This document shows, one piece after another, positions 24,527 through 57,800 of a stretch of DNA of 64,000 bases. A program made the translations under genes and the position numbers. Numbering within the stretch: position 1 is the stretch's first letter; every line of letters begins with the position of its first letter. Source of the stretch: Escherichia coli (lineage in GTDB: Bacteria; Pseudomonadota; Gammaproteobacteria; Enterobacterales; Enterobacteriaceae); the NCBI RefSeq assembly GCF_050320075.1, contig NZ_CP190018.1. One strand, given 5' to 3'. Below the pieces are notes generated by a model. The model did no database searches. It was not told the DNA's origin and saw only the letters and a program-made list of their open reading frames with translations.

Positions 24527-26104
24527 ATGACGGAAAACATTCATAAGCATCGCATCCTCATTCTGGACTTCGGTTCTCAGTATACTCAACTGGTTGCGCG
24601 CCGCGTGCGTGAGCTGGGCGTTTACTGCGAACTGTGGGCGTGGGATGTGACAGAAGCACAAATTCGTGACTTCAATCCAAGCGGCATTATTCTTTCCGGC
24701 GGCCCGGAAAGCACCACCGAAGAAAACAGCCCGCGTGCGCCGCAGTATGTCTTTGAAGCAGGCGTACCGGTATTCGGCGTTTGCTATGGCATGCAGACCA
24801 TGGCAATGCAGTTGGGCGGTCACGTTGAAGCCTCTAACGAACGTGAATTTGGCTACGCGCAGGTTGAAGTCGTAAACGACAGCGCACTGGTTCGCGGTAT
24901 TGAAGATGCTCTGACCGCAGACGGTAAACCTCTGCTCGATGTCTGGATGAGCCACGGCGATAAAGTTACCGCTATCCCGTCCGACTTCGTCACCGTAGCC
25001 AGCACCGAAAGCTGCCCGTTTGCCATTATGGCTAACGAAGAAAAACGCTTCTATGGCGTACAGTTCCACCCGGAAGTGACTCACACCCGCCAGGGTATGC
25101 GCATGCTGGAGCGTTTTGTGCGTGATATCTGCCAGTGTGAAGCCCTGTGGACGCCAGCGAAAATTATCGACGATGCTGTAACTCGCATCCGCGAGCAGGT
25201 AGGCGACGATAAAGTCATCCTCGGCCTCTCTGGTGGTGTGGATTCCTCCGTAACCGCAATGCTGCTGCACCGCGCTATCGGTAAAAACCTGACTTGCGTA
25301 TTCGTCGACAACGGCCTGCTGCGTCTCAACGAAGCAGAGCAGGTTCTGGATATGTTTGGCGATCACTTTGGTCTCAATATTGTTCACGTTCCGGCAGAAG
25401 ATCGCTTCCTGTCAGCGCTGGCTGGCGAAAACGATCCGGAAGCAAAACGTAAAATCATCGGGCGCGTTTTCGTTGAAGTATTCGATGAAGAAGCGCTGAA
25501 ACTGGAAGACGTGAAGTGGCTGGCGCAGGGTACTATCTACCCTGACGTTATCGAATCTGCGGCGTCTGCAACCGGTAAAGCACACGTCATCAAATCTCAC
25601 CACAACGTGGGCGGCCTGCCGAAAGAGATGAAGATGGGCCTGGTTGAACCGCTGAAAGAGCTGTTCAAAGACGAAGTGCGTAAGATTGGTCTGGAGCTGG
25701 GCCTGCCGTACGACATGCTGTACCGTCACCCGTTCCCGGGACCAGGCCTTGGCGTTCGTGTTCTGGGTGAAGTGAAGAAAGAGTATTGTGACCTGCTGCG
25801 CCGTGCTGACGCCATCTTCATTGAAGAACTGCGTAAAGCGGACCTGTACGACAAAGTCAGCCAGGCATTCACCGTCTTCCTGCCGGTACGTTCCGTTGGC
25901 GTAATGGGCGATGGTCGTAAGTATGACTGGGTTGTTTCTCTGCGTGCTGTCGAAACCATCGACTTTATGACCGCACACTGGGCGCATCTGCCGTACGATT
26001 TCCTCGGTCGCGTTTCCAACCGCATTATCAATGAAGTGAACGGTATTTCCCGCGTGGTGTATGACATCAGCGGCAAGCCACCAGCTACCATTGAGTGGGA
26101 ATGA
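24527..26104 (+). CDS. guaA: GMP synthase (glutamine-hydrolysing)
   Basis: 525-aa ORF with GATase catalytic cysteine (GVCYGMQ) and ATP-PPase motif SGGVDSS; C-terminus ...PATIEWE intact. Confidence 0.95.
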
Positions 26105-26149
26105 TTAACAGCTAACTCATAGCAAATCATTCCTATTCAGATGCCAACT

Positions 26150-26183
26150 CAACCCTCTGTTTTTGCAGAGGGTTTTTGTTTTT
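26150..26183 (+). terminator. intrinsic terminator after guaA
   Basis: Hairpin aaccctctgtttttgcagagggtt followed by tttgttttt. Confidence 0.7.
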
Positions 26184-26296
26184 ATGTATTCATTTCTATT
26201 CACTCTACACCATATTTTTCGGCGGTACAGGTGACGGTATTACCTTAAAGGTATACTCTCATACCGTCATGAAAATGGTTTCTATACGGGTGAATT

Positions 26297-27547
26297 GTGC
26301 TTACCGATACAAAATTAAAAAACCTCAAGCCGCAGGACAAACTGTACAAGGTCTCCGATCGTGACGGGCTGTATGTAGCTGTGCTTACGTCAGGCACGGT
26401 CTCATTTCGTTATGACTACCGTATCAACGGTCGCCGCGAAACACTGGTAATCGGGCAGTATGGGCGTGACGGTATCAGCCTGGCAGAAGCGCGGGAAGAA
26501 CTGATTGCTGCAAAGAAGCTGCTTAAAGCAGGCCAGTCACCGGCTGCGGCTAAACGTGACGGTATCAAAAAGATTCGTGGTGCCGAAACGTTTGCGGTAC
26601 ATACCGACAGTTATATGAAACACGTCATCCTGGCTGAAAGTACCCGCGCAATGAAGCAGGCAGTGATCGACCGTGACATACTTCCGGTTCTTGGCAACAA
26701 AATGATGGCTGAAATTACCACATCGATGGTTCGTGATTTGTGTGACCGGATTGTCGAACGCGGTGGCCGGGCAACAGCAGTGCAGGCCAGGGAGATCATC
26801 AGCAGCGTATACCATCACGCCAATGACCGTGGTCATGGTTTGTTTAATCCTGCGGCTGACATTAAGCCTTCGTCTATCGCCATATTTAAACCACGAGAGC
26901 GAACACTGACACCAGAAGAAATTGGCCTGTTCTTCCGCACGTTGGATGCCATTGGTGCTATGGGCACTATGAAAATGGCTTTAAAACTGGTGCTTATCAC
27001 TATGGTTCGTAAGGGCGAATTCACCAATGCAACGTGGGATGAAATAGATTTTAAAAAATGGACATGGACAATTCCTTCAGACCGCATGAAGGGAAGCCGG
27101 GCGCATGTTATTTACCTGCCTAAACAGGCTCAGGATATATTGGTCGGGTTGCAGATGTGCGCTGGTGGAAGTGAATATCTGGTTCCTGGTCGTTACAATT
27201 TCCGGAAGCCATTATCTAATGCCGCGCTGAACTCTCTGATCGACAGAACGGTGAAAATAATAAATGAAGATGGTGAGCATATTCAGGATTTCACCGTACA
27301 CGATATGCGCCGTACAGCCAGTACGTTGTTGCATGAGGCTGGTTATCCTTCAGACTGGATTGAAAAGGCTCTGGCACATGAGCAGAAAGGTGTGCGCGCC
27401 GTATATAACAAAGCGGAATACGCCAGACAGCGCGCCTACATGTTGCAGCAGTGGGCCGATATGATAGATTCCTGGATTAACGGGGAGCATACGGATCTGA
27501 TTCCGTTCTCCCCGTCGAAGTTTGAGAAGTGGATGGCGAGGGAATAA
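26297..27547 (+). CDS. int: tyrosine integrase (P4-type, arm-binding N-terminal domain)
   Basis: 416-aa ORF; N-terminus TDTKLKNLKPQDKLYKVSDRDGLYVAV; catalytic HxxR (HDMRRT) and C-terminal Tyr region; lies at the prophage-host junction. Confidence 0.9.
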   Translation: MLTDTKLKNLKPQDKLYKVSDRDGLYVAVLTSGTVSFRYDYRINGRRETLVIGQYGRDGISLAEAREELIAAKKLLKAGQSPAAAKRDGIKKIRGAETFAVHTDSYMKHVILAESTRAMKQAVIDRDILPVLGNKMMAEITTSMVRDLCDRIVERGGRATAVQAREIISSVYHHANDRGHGLFNPAADIKPSSIAIFKPRERTLTPEEIGLFFRTLDAIGAMGTMKMALKLVLITMVRKGEFTNATWDEIDFKKWTWTIPSDRMKGSRAHVIYLPKQAQDILVGLQMCAGGSEYLVPGRYNFRKPLSNAALNSLIDRTVKIINEDGEHIQDFTVHDMRRTASTLLHEAGYPSDWIEKALAHEQKGVRAVYNKAEYARQRAYMLQQWADMIDSWINGEHTDLIPFSPSKFEKWMARE

Positions 27548-27550
27548 CGT

Positions 27551-27745
27551 TTAATTATTCTGCTGATTTTCTTCCATCTCGGCTTCTGCTGCCAGTGATT
27601 CAATTTTATCTGTGAATATTGCTGACAGTGTTGCAAATTCAGCATCAGTGACAGCGGGAATTGGAACAAACCTGATCCCGCTGTGTGCAAGCATGTTTGC
27701 AGTTTCAAGGCATTTCCTTAAATCTGCTGGTGATGCCCTGTTCAT
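27551..27745 (-). CDS. hypothetical small phage protein (64 aa)
   Basis: ATG overlaps the stop of the upstream methyltransferase gene (ATGA), consistent with translational coupling. Confidence 0.45.
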   Translation of the reverse strand: MNRASPADLRKCLETANMLAHSGIRFVPIPAVTDAEFATLSAIFTDKIESLAAEAEMEENQQNN

Positions 27746-28404
27746 GCTGCACGCTCCCGCCCCTGGTTGTCTGTTGGTGACAGCGGAGCATTGCTGAATG
27801 CATTTGTTAATCTGGCAATATCCAACGCGTATCCAGGGTGTAGTTGCACTGCCGGGTCTTCGCACTGATTACCCCAAACATCGAAACCATGAGACGACTG
27901 GCGGGCGAACAGTTCAATGCGAGAAACATCGCCTAACAATTGCACAAGTTTTTCACGAACGATATCTGGTTTTCTTGAATGCTCAAGCCGCGGTGCGGTA
28001 AATGACTGAACGATCCCTGCATTAATGCGCGTAGGTAGTTTTCCCTTTACTGCAAACAGGCAATCTTCACTATTGGCGCGAGTCATGTGACCCATACCCA
28101 TAACCAGTTTATCTGGTTGTCGACTACCACATTTTATCCACGTGAATCCCTTCATGGTCATCAGACGGAATCCCCAGGCCTCAACAACTTTTAGTGCTTC
28201 GAGTGGTTGTGTTGGCACCCACCACATGGCCAACAGACAGTTTTCATCGGCCAAATCCCACACAGGAAGGCGGCAGATATCCAGCACACTCATAACCGGA
28301 TATTTAAAACCGGCACCGCGATTACCATCTGCGGCTTTGTCCCGGTATACCCAGGGTGGATCTGCATAGATTAGTGTGTATTTCTTAGTCATAAACCACC
28401 CCAC
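27742..28404 (-). CDS. MT-A70-like DNA N6-adenine methyltransferase
   Basis: Protein begins ...MTKKYTLIYADPPWVY; DPPW is the catalytic motif of MT-A70/N6-adenine methyltransferases; start may be the second Met (28392). Confidence 0.8.
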   Translation of the reverse strand: MGWFMTKKYTLIYADPPWVYRDKAADGNRGAGFKYPVMSVLDICRLPVWDLADENCLLAMWWVPTQPLEALKVVEAWGFRLMTMKGFTWIKCGSRQPDKLVMGMGHMTRANSEDCLFAVKGKLPTRINAGIVQSFTAPRLEHSRKPDIVREKLVQLLGDVSRIELFARQSSHGFDVWGNQCEDPAVQLHPGYALDIARLTNAFSNAPLSPTDNQGRERAA

Positions 28405-28684
28405 AACATCCTATGCCGCTATAGTCGCCACGGCGAAGGCCGTTACCTTTTGTGATACATTGGTCCCTGCGAACCGCGATCCTTGCACGCTCAACATCAC
28501 CAGAAGCAACATCCATACACTGAAGCCAAAGGTGAGCGGCAATGCGGAACTGCCCTTTTTTCTCTCTTTCAATCGCGCGTTTTTCGATCTCTATCGCCGC
28601 AGGAGTAACGGCGACAATCTTTGACGGACTGCGCATTGAAACCTTGTTCATGTGATATTTTTCAAGTCGGCTTAACTTTCTCAC
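28385..28684 (-). CDS. hypothetical small protein, possibly a small regulator; start uncertain
   Basis: Minus-strand ORF in the early leftward operon, ending just inside the methyltransferase start. Confidence 0.4.
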   Translation of the reverse strand: MRKLSRLEKYHMNKVSMRSPSKIVAVTPAAIEIEKRAIEREKKGQFRIAAHLWLQCMDVASGDVERARIAVRRDQCITKGNGLRRGDYSGIGCCGVVYD

Positions 28685-28793
28685 TTAATCCAACCCTCTC
28701 TGAAAATTAATGCCAGCAGATAAAGCCATGCTGAAACAGAGGCCAGGAATAAGTACCATCCTGACCATTTGCTCCAGTGCCTTAGCAGCACAC

Positions 28794-29042
28794 TCATGCC
28801 GCGTTGCTCACGGGACGATATACACGTTGCTGAACAGGAGGTTTTTTACCCTGGAACTCTGCCGGGCTTGCTGCCTGACGTTCATCAAGCCAACGCTCAA
28901 CTTCATCACGGTTCCATGCGCAGCGTTTATCGGTGATATACCAGCGTTTAGGAAATTCCCCTGCGCGCTCCATACGGTCGATAGTGCTCCATGACAGTGG
29001 AACCACCGCCAGGAGTTCCTTCTTACCTAATGCACCTTTCAT
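28794..29042 (-). CDS. AlpA-like HTH regulator / excisionase family protein
   Basis: 82-aa protein with the pattern ELLAVVPLSWSTIDRMERAGEFPKRWYI...WNRDEVERWL typical of the AlpA prophage regulator fold. Confidence 0.6.
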   Translation of the reverse strand: MKGALGKKELLAVVPLSWSTIDRMERAGEFPKRWYITDKRCAWNRDEVERWLDERQAASPAEFQGKKPPVQQRVYRPVSNAA

Positions 29043-29091: not shown

Positions 29092-30033
29092 TTACATAGA
29101 TGTTTCGTTTAATTCTTCCCGACGAACGCTGTAAACGTCGGTGGCTTTTGCCAGCAGTTCGTCATCATCTGAAAGTTTTTGTGCAATGTATTTGTAAGCC
29201 TTATCCAGTTCGGAGACAGTGCTGTAATTCATCGCTGCGCTGGTAAAGGCCATCAGCATTTCTTCTGGATCACGGCTGTCCGATTTACGCGTTTGCTCAT
29301 CAGGCTTTTTCGCTGGTTTAGCGTTGATCAGACTGTTCATTCCCGCAGCAGTGGTCGTTTGCGGAGTAATGTCTCGCTCAACGCGCGGTGCCGTTTCCTG
29401 TAATTCGTCTGGGGTGTAGACGCCCATGATTACGTCAGGACAGTGCAGGCGAGACCAGCGTTTTGTCGCAAGGTATGCGAGTTGTTGTTTCGGATCACTG
29501 GCCCAAAGTGTGGAGTTTCTTACCTGTGCTTGAGACAGCATTAACTCAAGCACTCGAGGTTGATCCTCGCCCTTCATGGTTGCCCATACGCGAACACCGC
29601 AGCCTTCTTCGTCTTTTAGAGTCCAGCCTGGTGCGATATATGGATTGCCGTTTTTGGATGTTTTCTCAACAAACTTACCGATCACGCGTTCCCACGGCCC
29701 GAACCACTCGTAGTTGATGCGATCTTTTGTTGGCGACATCGTTGAGATAACTGCGTTTACTAATTGGGCTTCATAACCTAGCGTGCCGTTCACAACATGG
29801 GTTTTCTGAGCCACGGCAAACGGGTTCATTCCCCACTGCGCAGCCTGCATTGCCACGGCCATGCAATCAGCTGGTTTCCCGGCGAGGTGCGCCGGTACCG
29901 TTACGCGGCTTTGCGCCATTACCTCGGCGAATTTCATCAGTTGGTTCAAGCCGTCTGGGCTGAAAATAGTTGCAGCAGTTCCAGCGATTGCTGTGTCTAC
30001 TGGTGCGTTGATGTTTGCGATGTCGTTGCTCAT
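29092..30033 (-). CDS. RecT-family single-strand annealing recombinase
   Basis: ORF 29092-30060; start placed at the Met directly following the stop of the upstream exonuclease gene; RecT-like sequence (...GTLGYEAQLVNAVISTMSP...). Confidence 0.75.
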   Translation of the reverse strand: MSNDIANINAPVDTAIAGTAATIFSPDGLNQLMKFAEVMAQSRVTVPAHLAGKPADCMAVAMQAAQWGMNPFAVAQKTHVVNGTLGYEAQLVNAVISTMSPTKDRINYEWFGPWERVIGKFVEKTSKNGNPYIAPGWTLKDEEGCGVRVWATMKGEDQPRVLELMLSQAQVRNSTLWASDPKQQLAYLATKRWSRLHCPDVIMGVYTPDELQETAPRVERDITPQTTTAAGMNSLINAKPAKKPDEQTRKSDSRDPEEMLMAFTSAAMNYSTVSELDKAYKYIAQKLSDDDELLAKATDVYSVRREELNETSM

Positions 30034-30851
30034 ATGTACATATCCTGTTTGCGTGCCCACTCAGGGCGTTTAATGATTTCCACACCGCCCCATTCATCAT
30101 TGATGCGGCATTCGTGATAGGTATTCAGATCCCGGCGGAACAGAGCGTGCCCGGCATCGACATCCTGCGCATCCAGCTCGAACACGCGTACCGGATACCG
30201 ACCACAATCAATGCTTTCGCTCACGGCAAGAAAGAAAAAACCATGCGGCTGACCAGTAACCCTCATTGCGCCTTCGCGGTACATTGCGTCCTGCACGTGG
30301 TAGCGGAATTCCTCGATGTGGCGTGCAAAACGGTCCATATCTGCAACCTTTTTCACGTCGACGATCACGTTGTGCTCGTTCAGCCATTTGTCTGGACGAA
30401 TTCGGCACAACTCCCCCGTCTCTTCATCGTTCCAGTACATTGATGCTTCGCAGTAACCAGGTGCTTCCAGCATCCAGCGTGCCGCCGGGTGAGCCATTGC
30501 GCTATCACGCATCAGCTCCAGTTTCCGCCACTGCTCGGCATCAAGTACCGTAATCCCCATATCCGCCACATCACGAAGAAATTCCTCTTCGTCAGCTTTA
30601 CCTTGTTTCGTCCGACGATCGAATTTCGGTGAAACAATGAAGCGTTTGTCGAACTCTCCAGGCTCCAGAAGCAGACAGTGCAATGCGGTTCCCATATCCA
30701 GTGCAGACTTTTTCTCTTCGTCTTCTGGTGCTGCCTGAACCCATTTAAGAAGCGCCGGATTCTTGGCAACCATGTCCAGTTGCGACTTACTCACGCCGTC
30801 ACCGGCGTGGTAGTCTTCGTTGCTGATGTCGAAATAAATTCCCGGTTTCAT
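30030..30851 (-). CDS. PD-(D/E)XK exonuclease (RecE/YqaJ-like recombination exonuclease)
   Basis: 273-aa protein MKPGIYFDISNEDYHAGDGVSKSQLD...; pairs with the downstream RecT as a RecET-like module. Confidence 0.7.
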   Translation of the reverse strand: MKPGIYFDISNEDYHAGDGVSKSQLDMVAKNPALLKWVQAAPEDEEKKSALDMGTALHCLLLEPGEFDKRFIVSPKFDRRTKQGKADEEEFLRDVADMGITVLDAEQWRKLELMRDSAMAHPAARWMLEAPGYCEASMYWNDEETGELCRIRPDKWLNEHNVIVDVKKVADMDRFARHIEEFRYHVQDAMYREGAMRVTGQPHGFFFLAVSESIDCGRYPVRVFELDAQDVDAGHALFRRDLNTYHECRINDEWGGVEIIKRPEWARKQDMYI

Positions 30852-31147
30852 GCCGCGTCCCTCTGTCCATCAAGCTGATCCGCCAGATCCCAGCGGGCGA
30901 TAATTGCCATTGCCTCTCGCCGATAGGCATCCATCAGTTCTTCGAACTCAGGGCTGTCTTTAGCAGCCTCCAGTACTTCCTGGCGAACGCCTTTAACTGT
31001 TACAACGTCGAAAGTTGATGCCAGTTGATGAAGCCGGATACTCTCAATCAGTTCAACTTGTCGGTCATATAGCTGTTCTGACAGACGGTAGTCCTTGTCG
31101 AATGCCAGCATGATTTTTTGAAGATTTTTCTGCTGATTAACGTTCAT
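30848..31147 (-). CDS. hypothetical phage early protein
   Basis: ORF 30848-31162; the ATG at 31147 sits 2 nt after the stop of the upstream small ORF. Confidence 0.45.
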   Translation of the reverse strand: MNVNQQKNLQKIMLAFDKDYRLSEQLYDRQVELIESIRLHQLASTFDVVTVKGVRQEVLEAAKDSPEFEELMDAYRREAMAIIARWDLADQLDGQRDAA

Positions 31148-31149
31148 TA

Positions 31150-31302
31150 TCAGCCCTCCCATATCTCGTTATCGTTGGCCACATCGCGAGCTTCTTTGCT
31201 GACGAAAGCCCACTTAATGCCTTCCTGTAAGGTGCGGAACTTCCAGCTCATGAATCCGCATGCAGTAACGCAGTACCAACCGTTGATGATTTTCCACTGC
31301 AT
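31150..31302 (-). CDS. small Cys/Trp-rich ORF (50 aa), first gene of the leftward early operon
   Basis: Manually translated: MQWKIINGWYCVTACGFMSWKFRTLQEGIKWAFVSKEARDVANDNEIWEG; GAGG ribosome-binding site upstream; below the ORF-track length cutoff. Confidence 0.35.
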   Translation of the reverse strand: MQWKIINGWYCVTACGFMSWKFRTLQEGIKWAFVSKEARDVANDNEIWEG

Positions 31303-31409
31303 AACTTGTTACCTCGGTCTGTTACCGTTGAGGTAATAATTATGCGTATATGGTTTGATGTCAATAGATATGAGTTAAAAAAATTACCCGTTAGGTAATC
31401 GAATAGGCA

Positions 31410-31435
31410 ATAAAAAAGCCGCCATAAGGCGGCTT
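31410..31435 (-). terminator. intrinsic terminator after the repressor gene
   Basis: Hairpin gccgccataaggcggc followed on the minus strand by a U-run. Confidence 0.6.
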
Positions 31436-31455: not shown

Positions 31456-32040
31456 TTATTGTTTGTTTTTTTCGTTCTGGTTGATGACAAATTCAATGTA
31501 ACTTTCGATCTTTGCTTTCTCGGTTTCGGGTAACAATGCGTAGCGCGAGCGATCATAGTTGATGGTCGCAGGGTCGTGCGGGTGAATCAGTAATTCATAG
31601 CCGTGACGCCCGAATGCGGATGCAACATTCTCCAGGGTGGAAATGGAAACGCTGACCTCATTGTTTAACAGGCGGCTGATTGTCACCTGGGCTACGCCGG
31701 ATGCGCGGTGAAGTTTTCCCTGTGTTGAAAGGTCGCGGCTTTCGCTCATCCAGCGTTCCAGGTTGTGAGCCGCCAGCTGGCCAATGTCGCTTGGGCCGAC
31801 AGGCTGAAAACCTTCCTGAGAAAGCGAGCGATCGATATCAAGCCAGTTACGGGGTTTATTGGCGGCAGCTTCAATTTTTCGCGCAACCTGATCGCCGATA
31901 ACCTTCTTACCAAGAGCCCAGCGGTTTACCAGATTTGCCTGAGTTCCAAGTTTTTCAGCCATCCGCGTCTGAACACCATTGAATTCACGGTCGATCAAGT
32001 CGTTGAGATTTTGCCTGCGGACGTCCTGGATACTTTTCAT
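31456..32040 (-). CDS. prophage repressor candidate (CI-like), tandem HTH domains, no recognisable S24 peptidase domain
   Basis: 194-aa protein; HTH-like segments QTRMAEKLGTQANLVNRWALGKK and LHRASGVAQVTISRLLNNEVSVSISTLENVASAFG; divergent from a Cro-like gene across an operator-rich gap. Confidence 0.65.
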   Translation of the reverse strand: MKSIQDVRRQNLNDLIDREFNGVQTRMAEKLGTQANLVNRWALGKKVIGDQVARKIEAAANKPRNWLDIDRSLSQEGFQPVGPSDIGQLAAHNLERWMSESRDLSTQGKLHRASGVAQVTISRLLNNEVSVSISTLENVASAFGRHGYELLIHPHDPATINYDRSRYALLPETEKAKIESYIEFVINQNEKNKQ

Positions 32041-37647: not shown

Positions 37648-37995
37648 GTGCGATTCGTGGCTAAATCCCCCGCAGAACGCAAAGCCGCGCAGCGCGCTCG
37701 GCAGTCCGCCGCCGGTGAGCGCAAAATTGAACTGGTGCTGGATAAGCAGGAGCAGGAAATGCTGGAGCGTAACTGTGCCACGCGTCGCCCCGGGCGTGCG
37801 CCTTACGAATTTGGGGAGTATATAGCGTTACTGATCCGCCAGGATGATGCACGCGTGCGCGGGCGTATAAAATCGATTAGCAGAAAACGTTGCGGTAAGT
37901 GCGGCGAGAAAGTTCCCGTTAATTCATGCCCGTGTAATGGTGACTCGCAATGCTGGGTGACTAAAGGCTGGCATGAAACGAAATTAATAGTGTGA
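37648..37995 (+). CDS. zinc-finger protein immediately upstream of the terminase genes (candidate late regulator)
   Basis: 115-aa basic protein with cysteine cluster CGKCGEKVPVNSCPCNGDSQC; stop codon lies inside a GTGACATGTCAC palindrome. Confidence 0.45.
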   Translation: MRFVAKSPAERKAAQRARQSAAGERKIELVLDKQEQEMLERNCATRRPGRAPYEFGEYIALLIRQDDARVRGRIKSISRKRCGKCGEKVPVNSCPCNGDSQCWVTKGWHETKLIV

Positions 37996-38044
37996 CATGT
38001 CACGAGTAGATTATGCATGATGAATTTGATGGGTTTTGAATACT

Positions 38045-40182: not shown

Positions 40183-40272
40183 TCCGTTAGCGGGGATAAT
40201 GACGGAGATATCCTCTGGTGAGGATAAAACAAAGCCAGCTCATCGGCTGGCTGTTTGTGACATGTCACGGTG

Positions 40273-40847: not shown

Positions 40848-40924
40848 TGGCGTGGCATGCAGGATTCGAACCTGCGACCAACCGCTTAGAAGGCGGTTGC
40901 TCTGTCCAACTGAGCTAATGCCAC
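40848..40924 (-). tRNA. tRNA-Arg (anticodon UCU), phage-encoded
   Basis: Manual cloverleaf: acceptor GTGGCAT/ATGCCAC, D-arm GCTC/GAGC, anticodon stem ACCGC/GCGGT, loop CTTCTAA (UCU), T-arm GCAGG-TTCGAAT-CCTGC, discriminator G, CCA encoded; closely resembles host argU. Confidence 0.85.
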
Positions 40925-43253: not shown

Positions 43254-43546
43254 CAGATTACGAAGACGATCAACTGAAAGAAGAAAACGCCCGTAAGCAA
43301 CGTGACATGGCACAGCGTGAAATTGATGACATTCGCTTTGTCATGAGCTGTGAACAGGGGCGTCGGGTTGTCTGGTCGGTACTGGAGAAAGGCCGTGTGT
43401 TTTCCGCTATCTCGCCGATGGACGCTATGGCAATGGCATTTAATGAGGGGCAACGCAATCTGGCGCTGGAACTGTTTCAGCGCGTTATGGCGCATTGCCC
43501 TGAACAGTATTTGAAGATGGCCAAAGAGGCCAGTGAACAGGAGTGA
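43250..43546 (+). CDS. hypothetical head-assembly protein
   Basis: 98-aa ORF coupled between portal and scaffold genes. Confidence 0.45.
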   Translation: MTDYEDDQLKEENARKQRDMAQREIDDIRFVMSCEQGRRVVWSVLEKGRVFSAISPMDAMAMAFNEGQRNLALELFQRVMAHCPEQYLKMAKEASEQE

Positions 43547-57471: not shown

Positions 57472-57768
57472 ATGCAAGCGATAGGATTCATTGTTTATAT
57501 CGTCGTTGGTCTTTTTCAGTTGGCAGCAATTATGGCTGGGCTTGAATCATGGTGGGGATTGCACTGGATAATTGCAGCCCCCATTGCTTTCATCGTGAGC
57601 TATATTCCATTTGTTGGAGCGATTGTTGGTATGGTTGGTGCTGTGGATGTATGGCGGTGGGAGTGGTGGCAGGCTGGCCTTCTCTTCTTTGGTGGGATCA
57701 TCTTTGCTATTGTCTGCGGTGGAATGTCATCATTTTTCGAACGGCTATCATTCAGAAAAGGAACGTGA
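57472..57768 (+). CDS. small inner-membrane protein (moron)
   Basis: 98-aa ORF with three hydrophobic helices; AGGTGA SD; stop codon inside a GTGACATGTCAC palindrome. Confidence 0.5.
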   Translation: MQAIGFIVYIVVGLFQLAAIMAGLESWWGLHWIIAAPIAFIVSYIPFVGAIVGMVGAVDVWRWEWWQAGLLFFGGIIFAIVCGGMSSFFERLSFRKGT

Positions 57769-57800
57769 CATGTCACAGGCCGCTTTCGCGGCCTTGTTTT

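Follow-up and report, generated by a model that had tools for sequence, protein, structure and literature searches.

A small prophage protein of 216 aa is, on balance, probably a Dam-like GATC DNA adenine methyltransferase which would be expressed from the early leftward operon of its phage. Homology to enzymes with published substrates suggests the specificity, and the pattern of promoter-like and terminator-like sites suggests the timing. The window, i.e., the whole 64-kb stretch of DNA that was analysed, consists of E. coli chromosome and a phiV10/epsilon15-like prophage inserted directly after guaA (24527-26104). At 98-100% identity the prophage DNA matches that of phages EC.W1-9, phiV10 and TL-2011b as well as the corresponding locus of many E. 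coli. Of 5,426 complete E. coli genomes, 548 contain a 1.4-kb segment with the methyltransferase gene; complete assemblies with an identical gene include those of strains ECONIH1 and FDAARGOS_497. RefSeq names the three genes considered here a DUF1382 family protein, an MT-A70 family methyltransferase (WP_000163456.1) and a PerC family regulator. The gene and its family are thus already annotated and widespread, and experimental work on close relatives exists; nothing in the locus is new and, as it stands, its description adds little. The methyltransferase gene and its immediate surroundings comprise the following features:

27551..27745, minus strand: DUF1382 protein of 64 aa, lambda Orf63 family (exo-xis region), by Pfam, PHROG and PDB matches
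27742..27745, minus strand: ATGA stop/start overlap of methyltransferase and DUF1382 genes (TGA 27742-27744, ATG 27743-27745)
27742..28392, minus strand: MT-A70 family (class beta) N6-adenine methyltransferase of 216 aa, identical to RefSeq WP_000163456.1
27745..27831, minus strand: C-terminal tail specific to the lineage, residues 188-216 (...GYALDIARLTNAFSNAPLSPTDNQGRERAA); a helix is predicted at residues 192-200 in the AlphaFold2 model
28351..28362, minus strand: catalytic motif IV DPPW, residues 11-14, read from the sequence
28385..28392, minus strand: last 8 nt of the PerC-like gene (ATGACTAA), which are also the first 8 nt of the methyltransferase gene (TAA 28385-28387, ATG 28390-28392)
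28385..28684, minus strand: PerC/ANR-like small protein, 99 aa from a GTG at 28684; the RefSeq start is an ATG at 28636 (83 aa)

Pfam matches to MT-A70, DUF1382 and PerC establish that the three ORFs are real genes and not chance open frames. In a mechanical ORF list the methyltransferase occupies 27742-28404 on the minus strand, with a GTG start at 28404 and 220 aa. The family-conserved start is the ATG at 28392, which yields the protein of 216 aa beginning with MTKKYTLIYADPPW; every relative starts at the equivalent position. Pfam PF05063 (MT-A70) matches over its entire length (E 3.8e-22, model positions 1-172 of 172), phrog_359 'DNA methyltransferase' with E 1.8e-120 and the PADLOC type II methyltransferase model MTase_II with E 2.2e-77; neither the methyltransferase nor the 64-aa ORF has a model in NCBIfam. 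The DPPW motif is positioned near the N-terminus ahead of the SAM-binding part, i.e., in permuted order, and its counterpart in the alignments to MTA1 and METTL3 is likewise DPPW. In an alignment of 54 homologues D11, P12 and W14 are invariant or nearly so. A sequence search of the PDB retrieved Tetrahymena MTA1 (E 3.5e-13) and also human METTL3. The same two proteins are the best Foldseek matches (probability 1.00, TM-score 0.60-0.65) of an AlphaFold2 model built with 54 homologues (pLDDT 80, pTM 0.78). The protein is thus predicted to be a small, single-domain, SAM-dependent adenine methyltransferase of the MT-A70 fold. The initial annotation had described an MT-A70-like adenine methyltransferase with a DPPW motif, and Pfam profile and predicted fold agree with it.

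Fold and DPPW are held in common with the eukaryotic MT-A70 enzymes METTL3-METTL14 and ciliate MTA1-MTA9, the best matches among solved structures, yet their identity to the E. coli prophage enzyme is about 20-24%. The eukaryotic enzymes carry additional domains and function only as heteromers; their targets are RRACH in RNA or ApT in DNA. The bacterial branch of the MT-A70 family, to which M.EfaBMDam of transposon Tn1549 belongs, was reportedly described by Bujnicki et al. in 2002. An identity with M.EcoGII was considered and rejected: M.EcoGII, like M.EcoGI, has 349 aa and the N6_N4-type class beta architecture, with DPPY as its motif and a recognition domain in the centre (PMC5778455), as opposed to 216 aa, DPPW and an MT-A70 profile. 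M.EcoGII and M.EcoGI resemble the enzyme insofar as they are orphan class beta adenine methyltransferases of E. coli prophages; they are non-specific and not of the MT-A70 type.

The 64-aa ORF downstream matches DUF1382 over its full length (Pfam E 1.6e-30, model positions 1-60 of 60), phrog_292 (E 8e-30) and PDB entry 8DSB (E 5.8e-13), which is lambda Orf63 (PMC10869804). Lambda orf63 occupies the same place, close to xis and int within the leftward operon, but differs in having no adjoining methyltransferase gene. Its deletion delays and reduces prophage induction (PMC5575149). The upstream ORF matches phrog_868 from end to end (E 5.7e-62, positions 1-99 of 99) and Pfam PerC over 46 residues (E 8.6e-07); the match to NCBIfam ANR_neg_reg (E 3.4e-05) has 23.6 bits and is below the curated cut-off of 32 bits. 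The N-terminus of the PerC-like protein is kept in relatives at 66-68% identity.

The remainder of the operon and its presumed control region are arranged as follows:

26297..27547, plus strand: tyrosine integrase, first prophage gene, convergent with the operon (phrog_1 E 2e-86, NCBIfam integrase domain, RefSeq)
28681..28797, minus strand: ORF for a 38-aa membrane protein (phrog_17484 E 4.7e-27), with 4-nt overlaps to both neighbours
28794..29042, minus strand: AlpA-like helix-turn-helix protein/excisionase (phrog_66 E 2e-16, RefSeq)
29092-30033, minus strand: RecT annealing protein (phrog_561 E 4.6e-147)
30030-30851, minus strand: exonuclease VIII-like PD-(D/E)XK nuclease (phrog_412 E 3.5e-127), recombination partner of RecT
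31336..31364, minus strand: promoter-like site, candidate pL (TTGACA, 17-nt spacer, AATTAT), a pattern match of 10/12 positions in a consensus scan
31416-31435, minus strand: terminator-like hairpin 3' of the CI-like repressor gene, from a terminator scan
31456-32040, minus strand: CI-like repressor (phrog_8 and repressor families)

Two further small ORFs are located between the exonuclease VIII-like gene and the promoter-like site. The consensus scan gave one strong promoter-like site below the repressor gene, the terminator scan detected no minus-strand terminator-like site between it and 27551, and phage epsilon15 has the same operon order and layout. Placement of the methyltransferase in an early leftward operon, as initially proposed, fits these patterns and this synteny and is reasonable.

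Substrates of several relatives have been published. Residues 1-187, the core, are 83% identical to gp5 of the Stx phage phiPA8 (M.EcoPA8orf6770P). Both genes code for an MT-A70 core with DPPW and are positioned in a leftward operon, close to its integrase end; in both loci a DUF1382/Orf63-like gene follows immediately (the 64-aa ORF is 49% identical to phiPA8 gp4) and an upstream gene overlaps the start codon. The differences are that the upstream gene codes for PNB-2 in phiPA8 and for a PerC-like protein here, that one phage is a Stx-converting lambdoid phage and the other a phiV10-like podovirus, and that the last 29 residues are unrelated. M.EcoGV of an O104 STEC strain, highly similar to gp5, methylated GATC in vivo when overproduced, according to a citation in PMC10810198; the same source states that many gp5 relatives are entered in REBASE as GATC enzymes, and an entry in PMC6602927 gives M.EcoGV as GATC-specific. 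A single residue separates gp5 from the methylase of P13374, a Stx2a phage of O104:H4.

More distant relatives point in the same direction. Protein p32 of Serratia phage vB_SspM_BZS1 is 40% identical to the prophage methyltransferase, with a 23-residue insertion in the alignment. When expressed alone in dam- E. coli it rendered plasmid DNA MboI-resistant and DpnI-sensitive (PMC7556043). Its gene has an ANR/PerC-type small gene directly upstream and a small ORF downstream, and it lies beside excisionase and integrase genes. By BLASTP the neighbours of p32 show no similarity to the neighbours in the E. coli prophage; a multiple alignment lines up the ANR core of the BZS1 gene with the PerC-like family. 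Further, an MT-A70 protein of Tn1549 type from Enterococcus is 45% identical to the prophage methyltransferase. It is probably M.EfaBMDam, judging by its matching identity of 41% to BZS1 p32; M.EfaBMDam is cited in PMC7556043 as the GATC-specific enzyme of Tn1549. It, too, is a small class beta enzyme on a mobile element, yet it is located among conjugation genes and not in a phage operon, and with 180 aa it has no C-terminal tail. GATC specificity at 83% (the gp5/M.EcoGV type), 45% and 40% identity thus spans the family and brackets the prophage protein on both sides. The initial annotation had given the target site as unknown. This is superseded insofar as substrates of relatives have been published, i.e., GATC (PMC10810198, PMC6602927, PMC7556043) and, jointly with PNB-2, 16S rRNA (PMC10810198).

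If the enzyme is indeed Dam-like, its physiological role could be outlined as follows. After infection or induction the early leftward promoter, itself under control of the repressor, would drive its transcription jointly with that of the recombination and excision genes. Methylation of the GATC adenine would keep the fast-replicating phage DNA fully methylated where host Dam is limiting or absent. Full methylation may shield the phage DNA from nucleases which cut unmethylated GATC, and it may deny a hemimethylated substrate to MutH while the RecT/exonuclease pair makes recombinants.

Several points argue against a GATC enzyme. E. coli already has Dam, and in its presence a second GATC enzyme has no obvious protective value in E. 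coli. The closest tested homologue, gp5, had negligible activity on DNA or RNA in vitro when purified alone, even on dam- DNA (PMC10810198). Moreover, the last 29 residues of the prophage enzyme differ from those of every tested enzyme. As to benefit, the initial annotation had suggested anti-restriction or regulation; anti-restriction is but one possible role, and the sole phenotype measured for a close homologue is more spontaneous prophage induction.

The alternative which survives best, unlikely as we consider it to be, runs as follows: the protein may mainly be an RNA methyltransferase like gp5-PNB-2, acting on host 16S rRNA or another stable RNA, thereby tuning translation and induction frequency, with DNA methylation as a side activity. 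Gong et al. reported that an IS629 insertion in gp5 of phiPA8 lowers spontaneous induction and virulence and that complementation, i.e., raising both again, requires the DPPW of gp5 (PMC10810198). Together with PNB-2, the product of the overlapping upstream gene, gp5 formed a 1:1 complex which methylated RNA >13-fold better than DNA and preferred 16S rRNA (PMC10810198). The high core identity to gp5 favors an RNA substrate, as does the fact that METTL3, an RNA enzyme, is among the closest solved structures. Yet the very subunit reported to confer the RNA preference is absent. The upstream ORF has no similarity to PNB-2 by BLASTP or hhalign; the profile-profile comparison using the PerC-like family gave a probability of 0.1%. 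Neither PNB-1 nor PNB-2 was detected in the 64-kb window by tblastn. Further to this point, the C-terminal 27 residues of gp5 were proposed as the contact to PNB-2 and to be needed for the holoenzyme (PMC10810198), and exactly this part is replaced: after residue 187 the tail is unrelated to that of gp5. In addition, the base that is modified in the rRNA was never identified. We found no follow-up to the phiPA8 gp5 study in the papers searched.

The tail itself deserves attention. Compared with five diverged relatives its pN/pS is 0.21-0.31, i.e., it is evidently under purifying selection and not read-through junk. The sequence NAPLSPTDNQG of the tail recurs with its flanks in an independent ORF of 63 aa, again C-terminally. 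This ORF is positioned directly 3' of short-tailed methyltransferases (196 aa) with an ATGA overlap, and its DNA matches that of the tail at 29/35 bases. There is also a weak match to phrog_16888. These similarities hint at an origin of the tail by fusion with a once-separate small gene.

The neighbourhood was compared in 306 related loci from viral contigs, collected with four queries; the first query gave near-identical loci only, and three diverged queries added diversity. For each locus the methyltransferase gene and the flanking ORFs on the same strand were located. PNB-2 occurs only with the tail type of Stx phages, which again speaks against an RNA enzyme of the gp5-PNB-2 kind. Whatever the neighbour, the methyltransferase gene most commonly overlaps it by 1-8 nt, at the 5' end as well as at the 3' end. 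Downstream, an overlap of 4 nt is commonest independent of which gene follows; upstream, an overlap of 8 nt prevails in nearly all phiV10-type loci. In the prophage itself the region from 29042 to 27551 is an unbroken chain of five genes with overlaps of 4-8 nt, and the exonuclease and RecT genes are joined likewise. Since the overlaps extend along the entire operon, irrespective of the neighbour, coupling is a property of the operon and not a mark of a specific partner. The overlaps of the stop codon with the start of the 64-aa ORF (ATGA) and of the start codon with the upstream small gene had been noted initially and are exact to the base. Translational coupling, claimed at the same time, is compatible with the overlapping stop and start codons, but it is not specific to the methyltransferase.

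A second alternative, which appears still less probable, assigns the protein the role of a catalytic subunit in a heteromer with a coupled neighbour, either the PerC/ANR-like protein or an Orf63-like dimer docking on the C-terminal helix; the partner would then set the substrate. The 1:1 complex of gp5 and PNB-2 is a precedent. The PerC/ANR-like gene is located directly upstream of methyltransferase genes whose products are 69-100% identical, and BZS1 (40%) has an ANR gene in the same place, i.e., the pairing extends over 40-100% identity; in three loci the PerC/ANR-like gene is fused to an N-terminal winged-helix-like domain. DUF1382 follows almost exclusively long-tailed enzymes (47 distinct methyltransferase/neighbour combinations versus 1). 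The tail, selected and predicted to be helical, would suit lambda Orf63, the cleft of which binds amphipathic helices (PMC10869804). On the other hand, in seven loci the same methyltransferase with the same tail is preceded by an unrelated 367-aa gene instead of the PerC-like gene. DUF1382 gives way to a phosphatase (219 aa) or another ORF (82 aa) in about 50 loci of the phiV10 type, and the methyltransferase is unchanged. BZS1 p32 worked alone (PMC7556043). As two or three lineages supply the associations, the pairing of neighbours may reflect common descent, and overlaps are the rule across the operon. An AlphaFold2 model of a PerC-linker-methyltransferase fusion (pLDDT 46, pTM 0.31, paired alignment of 10 sequences only) speaks neither for nor against an interaction.

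More speculative again is a small complex of the methyltransferase, as its catalytic core, with its overlapping neighbours. The PerC/ANR-like protein, or the Orf63-like dimer bound to the C-terminal helix, would retarget the enzyme just as PNB-2 directs gp5 to 16S rRNA, and the three-gene cassette would be a switch for lysis-lysogeny or induction; we regard this as doubtful. If true, it would be the first biochemical role for lambda Orf63, and it could tie this poorly understood family to a biochemical activity. Of broader concern are two conflicting published results on almost the same protein, one with GATC in DNA as the substrate in vivo and the other with 16S rRNA as the substrate of a complex with a partner. 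The phiV10-type variant lends itself to a test, as its catalytic core is the same while its tail differs and PNB-2 is missing. Its substrate, determined alone and in the presence of the two small neighbours, would tell whether small neighbours set the substrate of the MT-A70 family.

That the gene is a decaying or silent passenger devoid of activity is very improbable: prophage methyltransferases are often silent in lysogens (PMC5778455, PMC4659465), yet all motifs are intact, the protein is kept in hundreds of genomes and in free phages such as phiV10 and TL-2011b, and purifying selection acts even on the tail. A function as the modification half of a restriction-modification system is hardly credible: PADLOC places the enzyme under type II methyltransferase models, but it has no other match among the neighbours, including the RecT/exonuclease pair, no restriction enzyme is among the RefSeq entries for the annotated prophage part, and the sole nuclease of the operon is the partner of RecT. 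With neighbours typed by PHROG, RefSeq (for the annotated prophage part) and PADLOC, no restriction endonuclease was found nearby, and lacking a cognate nuclease the methyltransferase is an orphan, just as the initial annotation had it.

Returning to the probable Dam-like GATC enzyme, the base composition of the prophage gives no signal either way, with observed/expected ratios of GATC of 0.76 (prophage) and 0.84 (host flank). Neither GATC nor other 4- and 6-bp palindromes are unusually depleted or enriched when prophage and host flank are compared. A link of the enzyme to recurring palindromes, about which the initial annotation had speculated, is not supported, as the sole recurring long palindrome found, GTGACATGTCAC, contains no GATC and shows no tie to the enzyme. 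Its three copies are located at 37992, 40257 and 57765, in unrelated flanks.

From the AlpA-like gene to the DUF1382 gene, the 64-aa ORF downstream of the methyltransferase, five consecutive genes are joined by stop/start overlaps of ATGA, GTGA or 8 nt (27551-29042, minus strand). The 104-aa ORF, the exonuclease and RecT are likewise joined by stop/start overlaps (30030-31162, minus strand). The leftward operon as a whole is arranged for coupled translation.

The small gene directly upstream of the methyltransferase has two possible starts:

28385-28684, minus strand: PerC-like gene, GTG start at 28684; the RefSeq start is the ATG at 28636 (83 aa)

Relatives conserve the 16 residues preceding the RefSeq start, with 66-68% identity, the PHROG 868 match to the PerC-like protein covers residues 1-99, and the GTG at 28684 overlaps the preceding 38-aa ORF as GTGA. 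The true start is probably this GTG rather than the RefSeq ATG at 28636.

The cassette is modular. In related loci (L009 and about 45 others of phiV10-like type, L012, L015) the neighbours are swapped and the methyltransferase stays unchanged. A 219-aa serine/threonine phosphatase stands in for DUF1382 in about 45 loci, and an 82-aa PHROG 9805 ORF does so in 7; in 7 loci the place of the PerC-like gene is taken by a 367-aa ORF which, judged by eye, we take to be DndB/DGQHR-like. In L201, L204 and L202 the ORF that directly precedes the methyltransferase (at about 3000) encodes a fusion protein, apparently with an N-terminal winged-helix-like and a C-terminal PerC/ANR-like domain. In further loci the methyltransferase is flanked on either side by small stand-alone ORFs which by eye also appear winged-helix-like. 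Related methyltransferases about 68% identical to that of the window have another location: in lambdoid prophages (L163-L186 and similar) they lie in the rightward operon, within its nin region, between an ORF recognised by eye as presumably NinB and a NinE-like ORF; again they share 4-nt overlaps with the adjoining genes.

The methyltransferase itself carries a C-terminal tail (27745-27831, minus strand; …LTNAFSNAPLSPTDNQGRERAA), which is similar to the C-terminus, …LLTAVLRNAPLAPSDNQGKIRNEPETPVA, of a separate ORF:

L269:3587-3779: separate 63-aa ORF, with counterparts in L275, L283 and L290

In these four loci it follows short-tailed, 196-aa methyltransferases and is joined to them by an ATGA overlap. 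Because the tail resembles the C-terminus of an ORF located behind short-tailed relatives, a gene fusion in the past is suggested as its origin.

Elsewhere in the prophage the exact 12-bp palindrome GTGACATGTCAC is present in three copies, all at borders between gene blocks:

37992-38003: exact match, ahead of the small terminase gene
40257-40268: exact match, past the large terminase gene
57765-57776: exact match, directly ahead of a hairpin that is GC-rich and has a T run

A one-mismatch version at 43302 constitutes a fourth site. The sequences flanking the copies show no conservation. One possible role of the palindrome is to bind a regulator of late genes.

Close to the terminase and portal genes, inside the prophage, lies a tRNA gene:

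40848-40924, minus strand: tRNA-Arg, anticodon TCT

This anticodon reads AGA, a rare codon. At the integrase end (26105-27547), no more than about 190 bp separate the stop codon of guaA from the start of the prophage. In lambda the integrase gene is the last of the leftward operon, whereas here it is transcribed towards the leftward operon, i.e., convergently.
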